Shown: positions 1,967 to 63,743 of the stretch, piece after piece
Position numbering within the stretch: position 1 is the stretch's first letter
Layout: each line of letters starts with the position of its first letter
Assembly: GCA_022813865.1 (NCBI GenBank)
Contig: JALDZX010000065.1
Span: forward strand, 1 to 64,000
DNA: 64,000 nt
From: Xylographa opegraphella
Lineage: Eukaryota
Reading direction: 5' to 3'
The notes under the pieces: generated by a model
What the model saw: only the letters and a program-made list of their open reading frames with translations
What the model was told of the DNA's origin: nothing
The model's database searches: none
Program-made: the position numbers and the translations under genes

Positions 1967-3280
1967 CTAAACACGGTCTACGTTGGGGGGAGGCATTTGC
2001 CCCGACTCGGCATCGGGGCCCTGCCTATATGTGGCGTTGGCCTGCTGTGGATGATCAAAATAGTTGACGTAGCGGCCCGCTGCTGCATTCTCTGCCGGAT
2101 CGTGTTCCCCGTCTCTCACAGCGGAAGTCAGAGGGTGACTGAGAGGGGTTGGGACTGTTGCCGGGACAGTGGTCGATTGACTGAGAGGCCTACTGTTCTG
2201 CCGAGTATTGCCGTTGCTCGAGAACCTCTCGACATCACCGGTATTGCCCACAATATAGTCCGGGCTAACGGCCACATTCGGTCTCGTCATGTCTTTTTCG
2301 GGATCGAAAACTTCCGCCTCCCTGTCGTCGAAGTCTTGACCCGGGTTGGCCGTCTCATACTCGAGGGCCTTGATGAATTTATAGAATCCTGAAGCGACAA
2401 GACTTCCCAGGATCGGTCCCACCCAGTAGATCCAGTGACTGGTCCCGAAATCGTGCACGGCAACGCAAGGGCCAAAGGATCGAGCAGGATTGACGCTGCC
2501 GCCGGTGTAGTAGACCTGTGAGATTGTCAGTATTACCATTTTCGCCGTGAACCGGAAGCGGTTACTGACCCCGGTGAGCTCGGCAATGAATAGTGAAAGC
2601 CCGATCCCGATCGGGGCAATGAACGTCGCCTTGTGTTTCTCAGCAGCAAGCATGAAAATGGTGAATACCAGTTGTGCGGTCAAGAACATCTCGATAAAGA
2701 CACCCTGTGTCACGGACGTGCCAGCGCCCAATGTGGTGCGAATATTTGCACCTCCGGGAAATAAGACAAGGATGACCGCGGCTGACGAGATTGCCCCCAG
2801 AAGTTGTGCAATAAAGACAAGTAGACCACGGAAGTAAGGCACAGCCCCGACCAAACACATCCCTAGGGTTACCTCCATAACGGTTAGCTAGGGAACGGCA
2901 GCGGGTGAAGCAGTACTGACAGCTGGATTGAACAGTCCTCCACTGATCCTGAAGAACACCCAGGCGTTAACGGCCAAAGAGAAGCCGAAGCTGAGGCTTA
3001 TGTAGAGTAATCGGGAGGTGTCGGAGCCGGTATTATTGGGCACTGAAGAGCCAATGGAGTTGGCGACCTGGGTGCCAGCAAAGGCGAAGAACAGAAACAT
3101 GAAGGTTCCTGCAAACTCGCCCATCATGGCAATGAAGTGGTTGCGAGCAGCATTGGGCAGGAAATCAAGGTACGGCAACCGATGCGAGGTTTTCGACGCC
3201 GTTTCATCGCTCGTTCTTATCCTCCGTTTTCTTCCAGGGAGGACGAATCCTCCATGAGCGTTAGGCTCGATATTCTCCAT
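1967..3280 (-). CDS. Aquaporin (MIP family, orthodox water-channel type), 3 exons
   Basis: GEFAGTFMFLFFAF, SGGLFNPAVT (split by an intron ~2874-2920) and YYTGGSVNPARSFGP, HWIYWVGP. Both NPA boxes are present. Second intron ~2516-2569. Confidence 0.95.
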
Positions 3281-5200
3281 ATTGGTGACTGTGATGGCCT
3301 GGAAGTCGACTCGGCTTGTGGAAAAAGCAGTCGAACCTCAAGCTCAAAACACCGGCGGCATGAACAATGCGGTGGGGGGCAAGACTGAAAAGAGGTGAGG
3401 AGAAAAAGTGAGGTCAGAAGAACACTAGCTGGATAGAGGCTGCGTGCTTGTGCCGCAAGCCAGCCACAAGAAAGACAGCAGGCGTTGATGCGGAGAAATG
3501 CAATGGCTCCAATCGGACAGGTTGTGGGCCCAACGGTCTGGCGGCATCATGAGCGCAGAGGATGGGACTTGGAGCATGGGCAAGCCTGGGAGGGAAGGGT
3601 GGCAAAACGCGGCAGTCCATTGGCCGAGACAGTTCGAGATGCACCGTTTCCAATACGAGGCTGAGAATATATTGGTGACGGCTCCGGGAGGAGAGATTTA
3701 GCTCAGCCAGCAGGACTGGTATATTGCTTAGGAGGTTCGCTACCGAAGCTTGTTCTTCTGCTGAGGCACATTTCACGGTCAAGCTCCGAATTCATCGAAC
3801 CCGAACTGTGGTTTACTCGGCTGAAAAGGGAAATGGGAAAAGGGAGTTTTACATGATTAGGCGGGCTGGATTGGGGTTTGACTTACTCTGTTAGTCCCAT
3901 TGAGCTAGTGCTAGTAACAGCGGGTCAGCCCAGTAATCAGCCACTAACTTAATTAGTGTGGAAAAGAAAAGGGCGGGTGACGTCGAGATGGAGATACACT
4001 ACGGAGTTATCAGTGACTTGAATGATACGATGTAGATAGCGGCGACACAGTTTGATCGCATCAACCCTTCTCCCAATCAATAACATGGCCACTCGGCGAA
4101 CGCAGGTGGCGAGCGTGTGCTGTCATCCTTCATTGATCATTCACGCCTTCTCCAGAAACGCGTGTTTCGTCGTCGGAATGGGGAAGGCCTCATCCGCCAC
4201 CCTGCATCAATCGAATAAGTGGACAAGGTACGGCAGACTGTTCAGATAGTTGCAGCAGACCCGACACGATGGACGAAGGTCTCGCCATTTGATCCTAGAC
4301 GTCCCTACATCATTGTGTTCCTGCCCTCTTGCAAGCCTCCAGAAAACCGTCTCAGCCCTCTTTGCGAACACAGCATTATCGTTATCATTAAGACAAGTGC
4401 ACGGCATTGGTCACATTAACCATACGATTTACATCTATGAACAAATAATACCTCGATGTTTCGACATATGTGTATTTCATGCGGCCCCACGGAGCGCTTT
4501 TGCTGCCTTCCCTTCCACAACCAAACAACAATAGTCCTACCTACATGAACCATAGTCCTGCATAGAACGCAACATTTTACAGCATCCCGTATGGAGGGAA
4601 GGTCGGAAGAGTAAGAATTCACCGATAAGCCGAGATGGCTTCGAGACTGTCTGCATCACAATGTTAATCCGTAGCCCACTCCATGCCCGGTGAAGGACTC
4701 GTGACTCGTGACTCGTGACGGCGGGCATCATCCGCCGCATGAAGACCGCCGTGCATGCTCGTTCAAACCATCCACCTTCATCTTCAAAGCTGCTCGTGTG
4801 TCCATGGCGTCGGGATCCATCAGCAGGGTGCCTCATCGCTCCCGGAGCATGAACGACAGTCATCTGCGTCGTGAGCGTGAGGGCCGTAGCCGCAACGATT
4901 AGCCCAATGCGGTCAAGCGCAGTGTGGCATGACCGGGTCTTTGATGTCAGTCGATATGTACACGACCACCGTGGCAGGCGCTCGCATTTCACGGATGAGA
5001 GTCTGCCTTCCGGAGTTTGCTGTTGTCACCCATCGTCGAGGGCCTACCTGAATACCATTTCTTCTACTGTCACTACGTAATATATTCCAACTTCTCCTTC
5101 GCTTTTGGACCTTCGGATGCCCTAGCCCCCAACGGAACCACCTTTCTCAGCGTCGCCTTGCTCAAGTTTAATTTTGTGCGTGGAGGCGCTGTTCGCCACC

Positions 5201-41636: not shown

Positions 41637-44181
41637 ATGAGTGTCGTGGGGGTTGATTTGGGTACCTTGAACACCGTCATCGCAGTCGCTCGGAATCGAG
41701 GTGTCGATGTGGTGAGTGTCTACCTTCGATGCAATGCTTCGTTTATGAACGCTGACCATGTCCTAGATCACAAATGAAGTTTCGAATCGTGCGACACCGT
41801 AGGGCACCCGATGAGTATATGTTTGCTCCAGAAACTAACTCTCACCCAGTTCCCTCGTAGGCTTTGGGCCTAAAAGCAGATACCTAGGCGAGCCAGCAAA
41901 GACACAAGAGATATCCAACCTTAAGAACACCGTTGGATCCTTGAAACGACTGGCCGGCCGCTCCCTGGATGACCCAGATATACAAATCGAGAAAGACTAC
42001 GTATCATGCAACCTGATCGACACCAATGGCCAAGTCGGGGCGGAGGTGTCGTACCTAGGCAAGAAAGAGACATTCACTGCGACTCAGTTAGTCTCCATGT
42101 TCCTGAACAAGATCAAAGCCACCGCTTCCGCTGAGCTCAAGCTACCTGTTTCCGATATGGTTATGAGTGTTCCGCCGTGGTTTACCGATCGTCAGCGGAG
42201 GAGCCTGGTGGACGCTGCAGAAATTGCGGGATTGAAGCTCCTCAGGTTGATCAACGACACCACAGCAACTGCGCTTGGCTATGGTATTACAAAGCTCGAT
42301 TTGCCGACAGCAGAGGAGAAGCCAAGGCGTGTATGTTTTGTCGACATTGGTCACAGTACCTACTCGTGCTCGATTGTAGAATTCAAGAAGGGCGAATTGG
42401 CTGTCAAATCTACAACATACGACAGACATTTTGGCGGTCGAAATTTTGACAAGGCGCTGGTCGACCACTTTGCGAAAGAGTTCAAGGAAAAATACAAAAT
42501 CGATATTCACACAAACCCCAAGGCAGTCGTGAGAGTCGCAGCAGCTGCGGAGAAGATGAAGAAGATTCTGTCAGCGAACGCGCAAGCTCCGTTGAGCATT
42601 GAGTCGCTAATGAACGATGTCGATGTCTCTGCCATGATGAAACGTGATGAGCTCGAGGAATTGATCAAGCCATTACTCGACCGCGTCACGGTCCCTTTGG
42701 AACAGGCGTTGGCCGAGGCGAAGCTAAAGGTAGAAGACATTGATGCAATCGAAATGGTTGGTGGATGCACCCGTGTTCCATCTTTGAAGGAGCGAATCAG
42801 CAAGTTCTTTGGCAAGACTCTTTCTTTCACCTTGAACCAAGATGAAGCTGTAGCACGAGGTTGTGCCTTCAGCTGCGCGATACTCTCTCCTGTCTTCCGT
42901 GTACGGGACTTCTCGATTCACGACATAGTCAATTACCCGATCGAGTTCAATTGGGAGCAGTCCCCAGATATACCCGATGAGGATACGAGCTTGACAGTCT
43001 TTAACAAGGGTAACGTCATGCCCTCGACCAAGATACTTACTTTCTATCGCAAACAGCCATTTGATCTAGAGGCCCGATATGCTAAAGCGGACATGCTACC
43101 CGGCAAGATGAGCCCTTGGATAGGTCGCTTTTCCGTCAAAGGTGTCAAAGCAGATGCAAAGGATGATTTCATGACCTGCAAGCTCAAAGCTCGTCTCAAT
43201 CTTCACGGAATTCTCAACGTCGAGTCGGGTTACTACATTGAAGATGTGGAAGTGGAAGAACCTATTCCCGAAGAGAAGGAGAGTGAGAAGAATGAAGGTG
43301 ATAAAAAGGAAGGCGATGTACGTTGCAATCTATCTTCTCATGCATCCCCTAACACTGAGGCTGAGGACGTCCTCGCCTCCGCTCCACGTTCGAAGTTGAG
43401 AACCATGTTTCATAACGTTCGCGCCGGCATGAAGCGAAAGCCTTCTACCTCTCCCAATTCAGAACTAACACTTCGACGTGATCAGGCAATGGAGACAGAC
43501 CCTTCGAGCACCGAGCAGAAGCCCAAGACCCGCAAAGTCAAGAAGCAAGTCCGCAAAGGCGACCTTCCTATTGTGCAGGGAACCTCGTCGCTCGATCAAT
43601 CAATCAAAGACGCCGCGGCAGAACGCGAAGGCACTATGTTTATGGAAGATAAGCTTGTGATGGACACAGAAGACAAAAAGAACGAATTGGAGGGTTACAT
43701 CTACGAGCTACGTGGCAAGATCGATGAGCAATATGCCGAGTTCGCGAACGAGGAAGAGAAGGAAAAGCTGAAAGCCAAACTTGAACAAGCAGAAGTAAGC
43801 TTCCCAACTGTCCCCTTCGTTAGTTCTAAGTGCAGTAAAGGTTTCTAACCTGCTCTATTACAGGATTGGCTCTATGACGAGGGCGATGACGCGACCAAGG
43901 CCGTCTACATCGCGAAGATGGACGAGATTCGCTTCGTGGCCGGTCCGATCGTTGCACGTTACCTTGACAAGCTCGAGGAGGAGCGGCAGATCGTGCTAAA
44001 GGCGCAGGAAGAGAAGGCGGCGAAGATCAAGGCTGAATCGGAGGCTAAGAAGAAGGCGGAAGAGGAGGCGAAGAAAGCGGCGGAACCAAAGAACGAAGCG
44101 GAGGCGCCGGCCACGAATGGTGAGGACGTGGACATGAAGGATGCGGAATCGGGGAAAGTAGATGGTGAGGAGCCGAAGTAG
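41637..44181 (+). CDS. SSE1: Hsp110-family chaperone Hsp88/Sse1
   Basis: MSVVGVDLGTLNTVIAVARNRGVDV|ITNEVSNRATP, LINDTTATALGYGITK, TLNQDEAVARG and EDKKNELEGYIY..|DWLYDEGDD. Introns ~41712-41766, ~41799-41849, 43318-43485 and ~43795-43863. Confidence 0.97.
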
Positions 44182-45880
44182 ACGACCGGTGGCGGGCAGT
44201 GGGTAATGCACCAAGGTACTTGGGATTTGAAGCATGACGGACGCATAGATGGTATGGAGCGCGGATAGACCGTAAGCGGAGTGGAGCGCAGGGGCTTTGT
44301 CTGCTGGCTGCTCGGCTATTTATGGCGGTGGGATGTGAGCAAGAGACGTACGTATTACGATAGATCAAAATAAATCAATGAATGCAAGCGATATGAACTT
44401 CAGAACTACTCCCCGATTCGGACCGATTCGGGATTGGAAGTTTGACGATTGGATTGTGTAAGTGATCACTTGTTGCTTTGCGGCTTGAAAGGGACAGCTC
44501 TCCATTCACGAATCTGAGTACGTTGCCTCCAATGGCGATCAGAGTATGCTTTGAGGAAGTGGTCGTCAAGGCTACAAGCTTCCCTGACACCTCGCGCCCT
44601 CAGTCGTGCACACGAGTTTCTCGAGCAGCAGTGCCAAAAATATCTCTAGAAAAGGTCGCCCTGCAAATCAGTAGGAGATATCAGAAGCACTGAGGGCTTA
44701 TGGTTTCCACAATGTATAAATACCACCTCCTTCATACAACACTTCTCTGCCGTGTGCCGAACGGAGTCTATGAGCTGTCCGGGTCTGGGACAATAACCCC
44801 TTGCCTGCGAAACAACCACTTCTCGCACGAGAGGACTCTATTTCTGCGCTCCTTATGAGATGGGCGAGTGTAGAGCTCCTGACGTGGTCAAGACTTTGCA
44901 AGATAACACTTCATATGCTGGTCGTTTTCTGGAATGACTTGCGAAGAACGACCCTTCCCACGATCGATATACCGCTCAAAGAAGTGTTCAGTCCCTTTCA
45001 TCGAGATGCGTATCGATCAGAGCCACTTCTACGCGATTCTTTATAGCTAGGTGGATATATCAGACGCTTGGAGAAGCATCAGTCGACGGCTCTGCCCAGA
45101 ATTGGTAGTTATAGCGGACCATACCGGTCAATAGTGATAAGTGTTGACGTACCGGTGTCGAGCGATACGATCCGTTCCCAGAGGGCTTCCAAATGGAAGC
45201 TGTACTGCTCGAGTCCAGGAGATATAGATCCTCGATCGGTGACCCACCGCTTGAACATGTCTCGATATAGTATTACACAACCCACGGTAGTTGAGAAGAT
45301 GGACTTCCATCCCTGTCTAGGAAAGTCTCGAAAAGAGGCCTTTTCAATGATGTGATACTATTCGAAACGGACGGCCGTCAACTCTACAATGGCGACAGAC
45401 GCCAAAGATCAGTAGGAGCGGCGCAACGAACAGGTACGCTGGCTAGGCCCGAGCAGCGATACTAGCAGGTGTTCAAAATCCTGATTACTAAGACAATGGT
45501 TAAGATGATGACAATAAAACGATGGCGCTCACTACCCAGTGAATAAAGAAACAAAAGTAAGCAAAAAAATCGGTCGAAAGTACAGGAGGCCTTGAGAGCT
45601 TCTCGGGTGCTTTGGATCGCCCAAAGGCGCAGATGAGACTGCTGACTTGACATAGCGAGCGGACAATCAGTCAACATCATATCAATGTGATCATATCTTT
45701 GCATCAAGACATCGATGATACTATATACACGAGAAACATGTCCTGGCTTCGAAACCTGACGTTGTCAAACCACAGCAGATTGTCGAGCACGAAAATACAG
45801 TGTCATAATTCTTCACTCAGGCCATGAATGATTCCGATTGAATAGGTCCCACGCTAGTGCAAAATGCTGACAATAGCTAT

Positions 45881-45886
45881 TATAAA
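45881..45886 (+). promoter_or_regulatory. TATA element ~30-35 nt upstream of tRNA-Glu
   Basis: TATAAA at -35..-30 relative to the tRNA 5' end at 45916. Confidence 0.5.
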
Positions 45887-45915
45887 TGACAATAGGGAGC
45901 AATCAATAAGAATTC

Positions 45916-46041
45916 TCCGGTATGGTGTAGGGGTTAACATCGCCCGCTTTCACCGGGCAGCCCCGGGTTCGATTCCCGGTAAATAGTTATCCCGTATTAA
46001 TTCATGAGATTTCAACTCTAACACAATTCTAGGTACCGGAA
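45916..46041 (+). tRNA. tRNA-Glu(TTC) split by a 54-nt GT-AG intron-like insert in the T-stem (exons 45916-45978 and 46033-46041)
   Basis: Acceptor stem TCCGGTA/TACCGGA+A, D-arm GTGT..ACAT, anticodon arm GCCCG-CT TTC AC-CGGGC and T-arm CCGGG-TTCGATT-CCCG|G. The joined length is 72 nt. Confidence 0.9.
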
Positions 46042-46053
46042 CTAACCAAAACC

Positions 46054-46061
46054 TTTTTTTT
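46054..46061 (+). terminator. RNA polymerase III oligo-T terminator of tRNA-Glu
   Basis: T8 run 12 nt after the discriminator base. No T4+ run occurs earlier in the gene or the insert. Confidence 0.75.
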
Positions 46062-46907
46062 CTCGATTTTTCCTGGCCTCCTTATTATATGTTTTTTTGT
46101 GGACAACCTTTTTACGTACAGATATTGAGGCTATAGACAGGAATCCAACTTCATGTCTGCGTATACGAGTAACAGAGATGACGCAGAAGATAATCTGCCC
46201 GAGATCGTAGGATAGATTCAAGGAGGACAGCCAATCTTTTTGAATACAGAAAGCTTCAGCACTTGATGTCAATGAACAGGACGAAGGATGTCGTCCTCGG
46301 CTAGAATAACATCAATGGACATGGGTATCTTGTACGAGCACTCAATACACGAATGCTTAACGTGACTCACGATCCGTAGGGCTATAGTTCCATTCGACTA
46401 CGTTACTGAATCAAACTTTTAAAATTAGCCCTTATAATTTAGCCCTCGTCTACCTGCATTTCTAGATTAAGGACGGCGTGGTTCATGAATGCTGAATAGA
46501 GACAAACAAAAGATGCACCACCGATGCGGAAATTCGCGTTGATAGAAGTGTGCTCCGCTGTGCTCTCTAAAGACGGAAATGTTCAAGTAGATGATAACGC
46601 TGTAAAGCCCATTATGATCCTGACGCCGATATGAAAACTGAACCTCTGAAGAAGCCATTCGAAATCCGACCATCCATCCATTTCTCGCCAAGCCTACCCC
46701 TGTCCTTCAAGGGCTTGCTAACCTTTCGCTTAGCAGCCATCCAAAATCCCACTAGCGCCTCCTCACACGACTCACCAACACCAACCGCCTCAAACTTCCT
46801 CCACCACAGTGTTCAAAACCAGCGACTCTGCCCTCCTAACTCTCTCGAACTCCAAACTCAAGGGCAATCGATCAAATCCATAATCGTTAACTCAACAAGT
46901 CGCAAAG

Positions 46908-47412
46908 ATGGTACGTCGCAAGCTTCAGCCGCGCACAAAATCCATGACGAATTCCACTTTCGCGCCCCTCATTTTCGATCTCCGGTCTCCGAATGATCGT
47001 TGCAAAATGCTAATGCTCTATGAATAGGTTCTCGCAGTTGATCTTCTAAACCCAACGCCTGCGGCGGAGGCTCGTAAGCACAAGCTCAAGGTACGTCTTT
47101 GTGGGAACCTTTGCCACACACACTGTACCCAGCTCGAAAAACCATCATCAAAACATCCCAAGACTCCTTTCCACTTTTCAACCTATTGCTCGGAACACAG
47201 CATCACTAACACATTCCCTCCACTTCCAGACTCTTGTACCCGCCCCCCGCTCCTTCTTCATGGACGTCAAATGCCCCGGCTGCTTCACCATCACGACCGT
47301 CTTCTCGCACGCCCAGACCGTCGTCATCTGCGCCGGCTGCTCGACCGTGCTCTGCCAACCCACCGGCGGAAAGGCGAGACTCACAGAGGGCTGCTCGTTC
47401 CGGCGAAAGTAG
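46908..47412 (+). CDS. RPS27: 40S ribosomal protein S27 (eS27)
   Basis: [84 protein letters not shown]. Introns 46911-47027 and 47091-47229. Confidence 0.98.
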
Positions 47413-53604: not shown

Positions 53605-55525
53605 TCATGCCTTCCCATTCTCCACCACGCCCACCGCTCCAAGTGTGCCCCTAACGCCTCCCTTCCCACCCACTTCCCGTGCGGTGACTAGCACTCCTAA
53701 ATCACCCCCCACGTTGACCATCACTTCTACTTTACCGCCCTTCTTGATCCCCTTGACGGCCGCTTCCGCCAGGACCTTGCCGACCTTCCACACCTTTTCT
53801 CTCACCTCTTCTTCCTCGTCCTCACTGTCGTCCTCTTCGTCCTCGCTGTCTGCCTCGGCAGATTTGCCGTTCGTTTTGGACTTCGGCGAAGCTTTGGAGA
53901 CTTTGATGGCGCAGACGCCTTCGCAGACCTTGACGAGCACGTCGCCGCCTTCCCGGGGAGAGTTGAAGATAGCAGTTCGCCGGGCGGGGGCTGCGGTCTC
54001 GGCTTCCAGAATCGGCTTGAAGACGCCTTTCTCACTGTCCTCTGAGACGAGCAGGACACCGACTGCACACCGAAGGTGGGGTGTAACGGTGACCATGGGG
54101 TGGGCGGATTGCACAATATCCTCGAGGTCAAACTCCTGAATGAGGGATGCTTGAATAGCGGCCCCACGAGCGGCGAGGTCGGAAGGATTGATGGCTGTCG
54201 ACGATGTGGAGGGGGAGAGTATCGTTGTGGAATCCGGGAAGAGAGATTGAAGGTTCGATGCGATTTTCGGGGTGTGCGAGGTTCCCCCTGAGAGAATGAC
54301 TTCATCGATGTCAAGGACATCAAGATCGGCCTTCTTGATGGCACCTTCGATGAGGCGAGTGAAGCCAGCGAAAATCTTGCTGGACAAGGTCTCGTAACGG
54401 GTACGATTGATGGTGGAAGCAAAGTCTATACCCTCGTTGAGACTCTCCACACTGATTGTAGCATTGGCACTCAGGCTTAGAGCTTTCTTGGTGGCTTCGG
54501 CTTCGAGTTTGAGTTTGGCAAGGCCACGGGCGTGCTCTCGAGGATCACTCTTGTGCTTCTTCATAAATTCCTTGGAGAAATGGTCGATTAGAATCTGGTC
54601 TAGTTTGGCGCCATTGAAATCGTAATCGTGGGCTGTAGCTAGAATGCTATACATGCCTCCTCTGGAAGCGATGACGGCAATGTCTGACCTTGTGCCTCCC
54701 AGATCTGCGACCACTACAATCTTGTCTTCTATTTTCGCTTCTGATCGAGCATCGTAGGCGAGTACAGCCGCTATGGGCTCTGATATGAACTGTAGGACTT
54801 CGATACCTGCCTCCTTTGCAGCCTGATCAAGGGCATGTTTTTGTTGCTCTGTGAAGTTTGTAGGAACCGTAATGACTGCAGAATTAACCTGTTTTCCTAG
54901 AAAGTCAGATGCGGAGGAAGCTAGTCGACGGATGTGACGTGTTGTGATTTCAGAAACTGTGATAATATTTGGTGTTTCCGAATCAGTATCGTGTATGGAA
55001 AAGGCAACCGTAGAATCGTGTTTTATTGGATGAGCGGAAGGATGACATGGTGTCGGATCTATTGCGTCAAATCTGCAGTTGTAATTTAGCCAGGTTCGTC
55101 TGAAATTGTAAACATTGTATGAACTCTTTTCCTAGGAAGTCCCGGAAATATGCAACAGTGTTCTGGCTATTCCGGACTAGTTGCGCTTTTGCCTGCGTTC
55201 CGTTGAATTCTTCACCGCCAACATAAGATAATATTGACGGTATCTGACGGTCTGTTGTCCGTCGAGGTCAGTGAATGGATCCGTGCAACCGCAATGGGCA
55301 GGCATTGAGCCCCGACGCTTCACTCACCTCCCTCCTCGTTCGCTATTACAGTCGCTTTGCCCTCCTAGAATCTTGTTAGTATGTACTGTTAAAGACGCCA
55401 TATGCCGCGTGTATACGGACCAAAGATGTGTGTGCGATTGAGCTATTAGAATTCCCGAAAGAAAGCCCAATTGCATATCGCTCGGGCGGAGTAACAGTCG
55501 CTCCTTCATCGTCGTCGACACTCAT
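53605..55525 (-). CDS. SSZ1: Ribosome-associated complex Hsp70 Ssz1
   Basis: AIGLSFGNSNSSIAHT, IANEEG|DRQIPS, VADLGGTRSD..RGGMYSILATAHD and LSGGTSHTPKIA. Introns 55365-55420, 55252-55327 and 55073-55124. Confidence 0.95.
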
Positions 55526-62994: not shown

Positions 62995-63743
62995 TCATTG
63001 AAGACTTATACCAACTTCAAGCACGCTAACATAACGGATTTGGGTTTCTGGCAATTCCTCATCGTCTTGTTTTCGTGATTCGTCGGAAGTGGGGCTTTGG
63101 CCATCATCCATAGCATCCTTGTTACCATACATCTCTGCTCCATCGAAGCTCTTCCCTTCCGCTCTTGTCTCTGCCGGCTTCTCATCCACCACAATATCGT
63201 CTATGACACCAACACTACCAGTCCTTAGCCTCACTCTGCAATCTTGTTGACCCTGAAAGAACAAAGCCAGGCCTAGCGCTCTCTCGATAGCTTTATTCGT
63301 AGCTTTGAGAGTCACTTCCTCTGGTTCCTTGTGTTGCTTTCCAAGTGTTGAGAGTCTCTGCCTGTCGCTACCTTTGCCGCCAACAAGATCGACTTTCCCC
63401 ATGGCGCGCTTATCTACCTGCGCAAGGAGTTTCCGAACGCGCTTGACTACTGAGATGAAAGGAGTGCTGGACGAGACATAGATGACTTTTGGCTGCGAAG
63501 CATTGGTGTACGGCGACGGGATAGCTGGATGAAGGATGGGACGTTTCTCGATCCGCGCATCTATCGCGTCGTGATTAGCTGTCAACTGTCCGGGAAGTGT
63601 GCGAAGCTCCTACGATTTGGTAGGCGCTTGAGCTTGTGATGTTGCTGCTGCTTCTTCTCTTCACGCTTGGCTGATGACGGCGCCATTCTTGGCCTCTTAA
63701 TAACCAAGAGGCCTTCAAGTATGATGATTCACGGCTCCTTCAT
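62995..63743 (-). CDS. POP7: RNase P/MRP subunit Pop7/Rpp20 (Alba fold); 5' exon uncertain
   Basis: HHKLKRLPN|HARIEKRPILHP, IYVSSSTPFISVVKRVRKLL, VTLKATNKAIERAL, VRLRTGSVGVIDDI and RYVSVLEVGI. Intron ~63561-63613. Confidence 0.85.

Follow-up and report, generated by a model that had tools for sequence, protein, structure and literature searches.

A tRNA-Glu(TTC) gene of Xylographa opegraphella, a lichen-forming ascomycete of the class Lecanoromycetes, is divided within its T-stem by 54 extra nucleotides. The gene lies in a stretch of 64,000 nucleotides, referred to below as the window, and its split structure is confirmed. Judging from its sequence, this is likely to be a nuclear tRNA-Glu(UUC) gene transcribed by RNA polymerase III (Pol III), whose only intron would be a U2-type spliceosomal intron gained at tRNA position 64/65, similar to those of fungal U6 genes. 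The spliceosomal reading of the original prediction is supported, if indirectly.

A tRNA-Glu gene divided in its T-stem

The letters and coordinates at 45916-46061 match those first described. The parts of the gene, together with the two flanking genes that contribute reference introns, are as follows:

41637-44181, plus strand: SSE1, three introns, basis of the species assignment and intron reference (homology)
45881-45886, plus strand: TATA element about 30-35 nt 5' of the mature end, function presumed (motif scan)
45916-46041, plus strand: tRNA-Glu(TTC) gene of the Xylographa opegraphella window, 126 nt including the insert
45916-45978, plus strand: 5' exon, positions 1-64 (63 nt), without a 37/38 intron (ARAGORN, Rfam, excision test)
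45923-45934, plus strand: A box (D arm, positions 8-19), read off the excised cloverleaf by the generally known consensus
45949-45951, plus strand: anticodon TTC (ARAGORN)
45966-45976, plus strand: intact B box, the sole match on both window strands (motif scan)
45978-45981, plus strand: left copy of the GGTA border repeat, which makes five registers equivalent
45979-46032, plus strand: putative U2-type spliceosomal intron, 54 nt, tRNA position 64/65 (excision and splice-signal tests)
45979-45984, plus strand: donor GTAAAT, with A at +5 where the generally known consensus has G
46017-46022, plus strand: branch site TCTAAC, branch A at 46021 (motif scan)
46030-46032, plus strand: acceptor TAG (sequence)
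46032-46035, plus strand: right copy of the GGTA border repeat, with the same effect on the registers
46033-46041, plus strand: 3' exon, 9 nt, from position 65 through the 3' acceptor strand to the discriminator (excision test)
46054-46061, plus strand: T8 run, Pol III terminator-like (motif scan)
46908-47412, plus strand: RPS27, two introns, intron reference (homology)

ARAGORN finds no tRNA gene in the unspliced window, and the Rfam tRNA match there is incomplete (45921-45981, model positions 6-65 of 71, 37 bits). Deleting 45979-46032, a before-and-after comparison of the kind that the original prediction had proposed, turns this null result into a 72-nt tRNA-Glu(TTC) body (ARAGORN score 123.9) with a complete cloverleaf and the conserved D and T loop bases. 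The insert follows nucleotide 63, which corresponds to standard position 64/65, and the 9-nt 3' exon forms 7/7 pairs with the 5' acceptor strand. Two earlier claims are thereby borne out: that excision of a GT..AG segment gives a 72-nt cloverleaf with paired stems, and that standard tRNA finders would miss the gene.

Since ARAGORN is tolerant, reporting some tRNA in 194 of 1380 arbitrary excisions, a bare match carries little weight. Full Watson-Crick pairing (7/7 acceptor and 5/5 T-stem pairs) arises in five of the 1380, and these five are shifted registers that yield one and the same product with the top score. The registers are equivalent because GGTA stands at both borders of the insert; one of the five has GT..AG ends (GT..TAG). 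Both strands of the window hold 2922 GT..CTRAY..HAG candidates, and a single one of them, 45979-46032, gives a tRNA across the junction when removed.

The gene sits between SSE1, whose spliced translation is identical to a Xylographa opegraphella protein at 789/789 residues, and RPS27. These two genes, the tRNA and SSZ1 (53605-55525) all fall inside 14 kb; SSE1 and SSZ1 encode two Hsp70-family chaperones linked to translation, and RPS27 a ribosomal protein. The interval of roughly 1.6 kb that separates SSE1 from the tRNA (44200-45800) contains several short ORFs and may hold a small multi-exon gene on the minus strand; none of six short ORFs between SSE1 and RPS27 was matched by Pfam. The Rpp20/Alba subunit of RNase P/MRP is encoded in the same window (62995-63609, minus strand), with no link shown to the tRNA insert.

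The TATA element, the B box and the A box seen in the cloverleaf are intact, as originally stated. Together with the T8 run, exons of 63 and 9 nt and splice signals (donor, branch site, acceptor) that resemble those of this genome's mRNA introns, they suggest the following route. Pol III would start transcription 5' of 45916 and stop at the T8 run, and the major spliceosome would remove 45979-46032 by the lariat route, as in Schizosaccharomyces pombe U6. Excision would restore a continuous T-stem/acceptor helix, and RNase P, RNase Z and CCA addition would then produce an ordinary tRNA. In the absence of a 37/38 intron, no cut by the tRNA endonuclease would be required. According to the predicted fold of the precursor, the proximal GG can serve to form the T arm and the distal exon the acceptor stem; the large loop left where these two helices meet should hinder use of the precursor in translation.

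The splicing could instead take place on a capped Pol II transcript, either the gene's own or a read-through, from which RNase P and RNase Z would free the tRNA once the intron had been spliced out during transcription. As a rule, splicing is coupled to Pol II, according to the available part of PMC12530127, and in the second case described below (L001) the B box is broken by the intron. However, the TATA element, A box, B box and T8 run of the window gene are all intact, and none of the plus-strand ORFs tested in the SSE1-RPS27 interval has a Pfam match, so that we regard the Pol II route as quite improbable.

Splice signals and their chance level

The reference set for the insert consists of eight homology- or frame-supported introns of SSE1, RPS27 and SSZ1. 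An ab initio collection from the window (74 candidates) was dropped as too noisy to serve as a reference. The insert is 54 nt long, against 51-139 nt in the eight mRNA introns, and the distance from branch A 46021 to its end is 11 nt, against 11-20 nt. The GT, the CTAAC branch site 11 nt from a YAG and the size typical of mRNA introns, all claimed originally, hold on inspection. The donor GTAAAT has 7/9 matches to the generally known U1-pairing consensus, compared with 3-7 in the reference introns. Its +5 base is A, where seven of the eight reference introns, and L001, have G.

A +5 A appears to be tolerated in this genome, since SSZ1 intron 3 (55073-55124, minus strand) has the donor GTTCAT, with the branch GCTAAA, and its borders are supported by solved Ssz1 chains, which match contiguously over residues 45-84 and then 87-187. 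Other non-consensus donors are found in SSZ1 intron 1 (55365-55420, GTCCGT) and SSE1 intron 2 (41799-41849, GTAGGG), and taken together the three donors indicate that this fungus tolerates poor ones. By its sequence features, the +5 G excepted, the insert is probably a member of the U2-type spliceosomal introns.

Two of the original arguments lose weight. The likeness of the 3' end of the insert to SSZ1 intron 1 (55365-55379) is real, with 13/15 letters alike, but eight of these letters are consensus and the pattern was picked post hoc. A T4 run is indeed absent from the insert, but this does not serve as evidence that Pol III reads through: the absence is uninformative because 40% of insert shuffles have such a run and six of the eight mRNA introns also lack one. 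The original prediction had also left out the 4-nt GGTA border repeat and the non-consensus donor +5.

Taken at face value, the combination of GT, CTRAY and YAG is rare, occurring in 19 of 127,493 window 54-mers (0.015%, or about 0.075% over five registers). If GGTA is read as a target duplication, the repeat itself supplies the GT and the last G, and the chance level therefore rises to 0.7-2.7%: with the repeat granted free, the signals are completed by 918 of 127,493 window 50-mers (0.7%) and by 5,424 of 200,000 shuffles of the AT-rich insert core (2.7%). GTA at both borders is also expected from a donor and exon start alone.

These figures bear on the possibility that the gene is a pseudogene killed by an inserted DNA fragment of 50 nt that duplicated the 4-nt target GGTA, another gene supplying tRNA-Glu(UUC); the intron-like look would then come partly from the target and partly from chance. 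The repeat at both borders, the chance levels just given and the weak donor +5 all favor such an insertion. Insertions in the D and T arms of eukaryotic tRNA genes are moreover regarded mostly as marks of pseudogenes in the available part of the review PMC4090602. The G+C content of the insert, at 30% lower than in all eight reference introns (37-59%), counts against the spliceosomal reading. Against a pseudogene, the promoter, the terminator and all stems are intact, and the comparable insert in L001 has a consensus donor and lacks a border repeat. A match to a transposon end, which the original prediction had named as evidence against its own reading, did not appear in the sequence test, terminal inverted repeats being absent (5/14 at best). 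The insert shares no word longer than 11 nt with other parts of the window, and no similar copies are found within the 64 kb. A dead gene of this kind is, on balance, unlikely. Tandem duplication of exon sequence was ruled out as the source of the insert, the longest common word being 5 nt.

Removal by the SEN tRNA endonuclease, as a non-canonical intron comparable to those of Cyanidioschyzon merolae or nucleomorphs, is very improbable. Intron positions in the D and T arms, including 59/60, are known in algae and archaea (PMC4090602, available part). However, a bulge-helix-bulge (BHB) forms in none of the five registers, the central helix having 0-3 of 4 pairs and the outer helices never both forming; the insert is unstructured (fold z +0.44); and endonuclease introns need neither a branch site nor GT-AG ends. 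By these tests the insert falls outside both the canonical (37/38) and the BHB-type tRNA introns.

Gene state, copy number and a second split gene

When contigs from sequencing runs were aligned to 45780-46180, one contig from the whole of run X1 was found to cover the locus (78.7 kb, depth 165, 0 differences over 45780-46180). Since this contig may be the window's own source, it is not independent evidence. The same circumstance is the one point in favor of an assembly artefact, the only bridging contig possibly being the source; given the length and depth of that contig, its lack of differences and an insert that is not copied from nearby sequence, we give such an artefact next to no credence. 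No joints were found at 45780-46180 among the contigs of X1-X3.

No other X1 contig aligned at 80% likeness, which is suggestive of a genome with no near-identical second copy, although contigs can show presence but not absence. Glu(TTC) genes only 57/72 identical exist (L001), so that a diverged second gene could escape the 80% threshold, and this again leaves room for the pseudogene reading. Runs X2 and X3 gave three partial tRNA-like matches of 41-57 nt. One of these runs, X2, contains a contig of another organism (depth 4.5) that agrees with 45923-45979 with 0 substitutions, though its anticodon loop has 10 nt inserted; its acceptor strands differ from those of the window gene. The window tRNA body shows no sign of decay, and the age of the insert is not datable from the X2 match. 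A recent insertion into a then-dead gene would likewise show no decay.

Decoding of GAA needs the UUC anticodon by the wobble rules, and GAA accounts for 117 of the 3937 codons in six ORFs of the window. All five other Glu(TTC) genes at hand (L001, L002, L003, L004 and the X2 contig) have an anticodon-loop intron, which is absent here.

Other split tRNA bodies, which the original prediction had suggested looking for in the genome itself, were sought in metagenome contigs, where tRNA-Glu acceptor strands lying 44-74 bases beyond their normal spacing were collected; splice signals were not required. The scan covers one acceptor-stem family and 44-74 extra bases, so its yield is an undercount. 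It returned four loci (L001-L004), one of them a true second case; the same pattern had no match in prokaryote genomes. At acceptor position 5 the window gene has G-C, where the pattern-matched genes of all four loci have A-T.

In L001, a tRNA-Glu(TTC) gene is interrupted twice, by a 20-nt intron at 37/38 and by a 54-nt insert (837-890) at position 59/60; the latter is a GT-branch-AG insert with the donor GTAAGC, the branch GCTAAT 10 nt from its end, the acceptor CAG and a single register. One of 120 candidates in the locus gives a tRNA on removal, and ARAGORN missed this gene as well. The gene adjoining L001 is 100% identical to a protein of Extremus antarcticus, of the class Dothideomycetes, whereas the window comes from the Lecanoromycetes. 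The longest word common to the two inserts is 6 nt, and the tRNA bodies are 57/72 identical. Since the signals of L001 stand at another site and in another class, the two putative introns are two separate gains. The one genuine internal insert recovered by a scan blind to splice signals has all three of them, although a single case makes a small sample. With its B box broken by the insert and the first T run about 75 nt downstream, L001 could itself be dead.

Yeast SNR6 has an extragenic B box. About 40 nt downstream of the L001 gene, before the first T5 run, lies a perfect B-box-like T-arm hairpin (944-954), which may act as an extragenic B box or may be a tRNA remnant; Rfam has no match at this position.

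The other three loci were rejected as split genes. The genes in L002 and L003 are intact; behind each tRNA-Glu(TTC) (L002:3001-3137, L003:838-974), its 3' end and terminator region are repeated in tandem, with a unit of about 53 nt. L004 is a chance pattern match. It has three tRNA-Glu-like genes (3053-3782, minus strand), one CTC and two of TTC type, the last of which runs off the contig; they lie beside what we take to be a dihydrolipoamide dehydrogenase-like gene. The start of the window insert (45982-46001) agrees at 16/20 letters with a canonical intron of 20 nt in a tRNA-Glu(TTC) gene of L004 (3384-3477, minus strand), a likeness reached by 1 of 20,000 shuffles but spotted after the fact among five introns compared. 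It is probably due to chance, since L004 looks like another fungus and the flanks differ.

How the putative spliceosomal intron came to be in the window gene is the weakest step. A free intron may have been reverse-spliced into the tRNA at a G/G site, followed by reverse transcription and recombination. Had the tRNA already been processed before it was reverse-transcribed, the lack of a 37/38 intron could be accounted for as well; L001 keeps both introns, so this route would not be general.

A wider reading is held with slightly less than even confidence. It proposes that the tRNA genes of Pezizomycotina are a repeated and unrecognised target of spliceosomal intron gain, and that the window gene is the fungus's only tRNA-Glu(UUC), so that GAA decoding would depend on the spliceosome, not on the tRNA endonuclease, and on a 9-nt second exon carried by an uncapped Pol III transcript.

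Comparison with known introns

Splicing of tRNA is treated as independent of the spliceosome, and only endonuclease-type or self-splicing introns are listed, in the available parts of PMC12530127, PMC13149111, PMC4090602 and PMC13578239; the string "spliceosom" does not occur in the searched text of PMC4090602. The literature search, of a corpus mostly without subscription papers or supplements, which included accessible parts of PMC11889510, PMC11282704, PMC11782384, PMC8450103, PMC1299323, PMC5832005 and PMC5855946, found no report of a spliceosomal intron in a tRNA gene. The supplements of surveys of fungal non-coding RNAs and tRNAs may bear on this novelty.

If the preferred reading is true, a tRNA matured by the spliceosome would represent a new class of tRNA intron, and splicing of Pol III RNAs, with U6 as the single well-tested case, would extend to an RNA that has no role in the spliceosome. 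Such a gene would test whether intron gain is driven by proximity to the catalytic centre or by mere abundance, and it would offer a 126-nt substrate for studying how the spliceosome finds uncapped transcripts. Standard tRNA finders would also be undercounting fungal tRNA sets, ARAGORN having missed both the window gene and L001.

Fungal introner-like elements are longer than the window insert. Introners, as described in the available part of PMC11282704, resemble the insert in having a short border repeat that could have supplied one splice site. Unlike them, the insert has no terminal inverted repeats, no stable fold and no second copy in the window.

Introns at 37/38 and those of BHB type are, like the insert, intervening sequences of a tRNA that need precise removal (PMC4090602, PMC13578239 and PMC13149111, available parts). 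In contrast, they are removed by a structure-guided protein endonuclease, whereas the insert lies at 64/65, without a BHB and with a GT, a branch site and an AG.

Introns of fungal U3 snoRNA genes are GT-AG introns with an RCTRAY branch and 6-36 nt from branch to acceptor; 88 of 136 donors fit GTRWGT and most of the others are off at one position (PMC5832005, section 3.2, available part). The insert shares the GT-AG ends, and the 11 nt from its branch A fall inside the U3 range. However, U3 intron positions are few and old, and the window insert has TCTAAC in place of RCTAAC as its branch site.

Spliceosomal introns are abundant in the rRNA genes of lichen fungi. In ascomycetes, such rRNA introns (Cubero 2000; Bhattacharya 2000, as cited in the available parts of PMC11889510 and PMC5855946) likewise represent recent gains in structural RNAs of Pezizomycotina that are not made by Pol II. 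Their AG-intron-G flank is partly present here, as G-intron-G, with C instead of A at -2. Unlike the small Pol III gene considered here, the rRNA genes are a multicopy Pol I unit.

The closest parallel is with U6. The U6 RNA of Schizosaccharomyces pombe is spliced by the spliceosome, and similar introns occur in U1, U2, U5 and rRNA, tRNA being unlisted in the available part of PMC5855946 (section 14); the same section summarises the mRNA-type introns of fungal U6 genes (Tani and Ohshima 1989; survey by Canzler et al. 2016). The putative tRNA intron is like them in being short, in its donor (canonical except at +5), its canonical branch and acceptor and its Pol III non-coding host; the positions are lineage-specific, the interiors unrelated and an origin by reverse splicing proposed in both cases. 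Unlike U6, the host here is a tRNA, which stands outside the spliceosome, the 3' exon has 9 nt of mature sequence, and the intron is known from its sequence alone. Seen beside the mRNA-type introns of U6 and rRNA, and presumably working as they do, it would extend a known kind of intron to tRNA as a new class of host.
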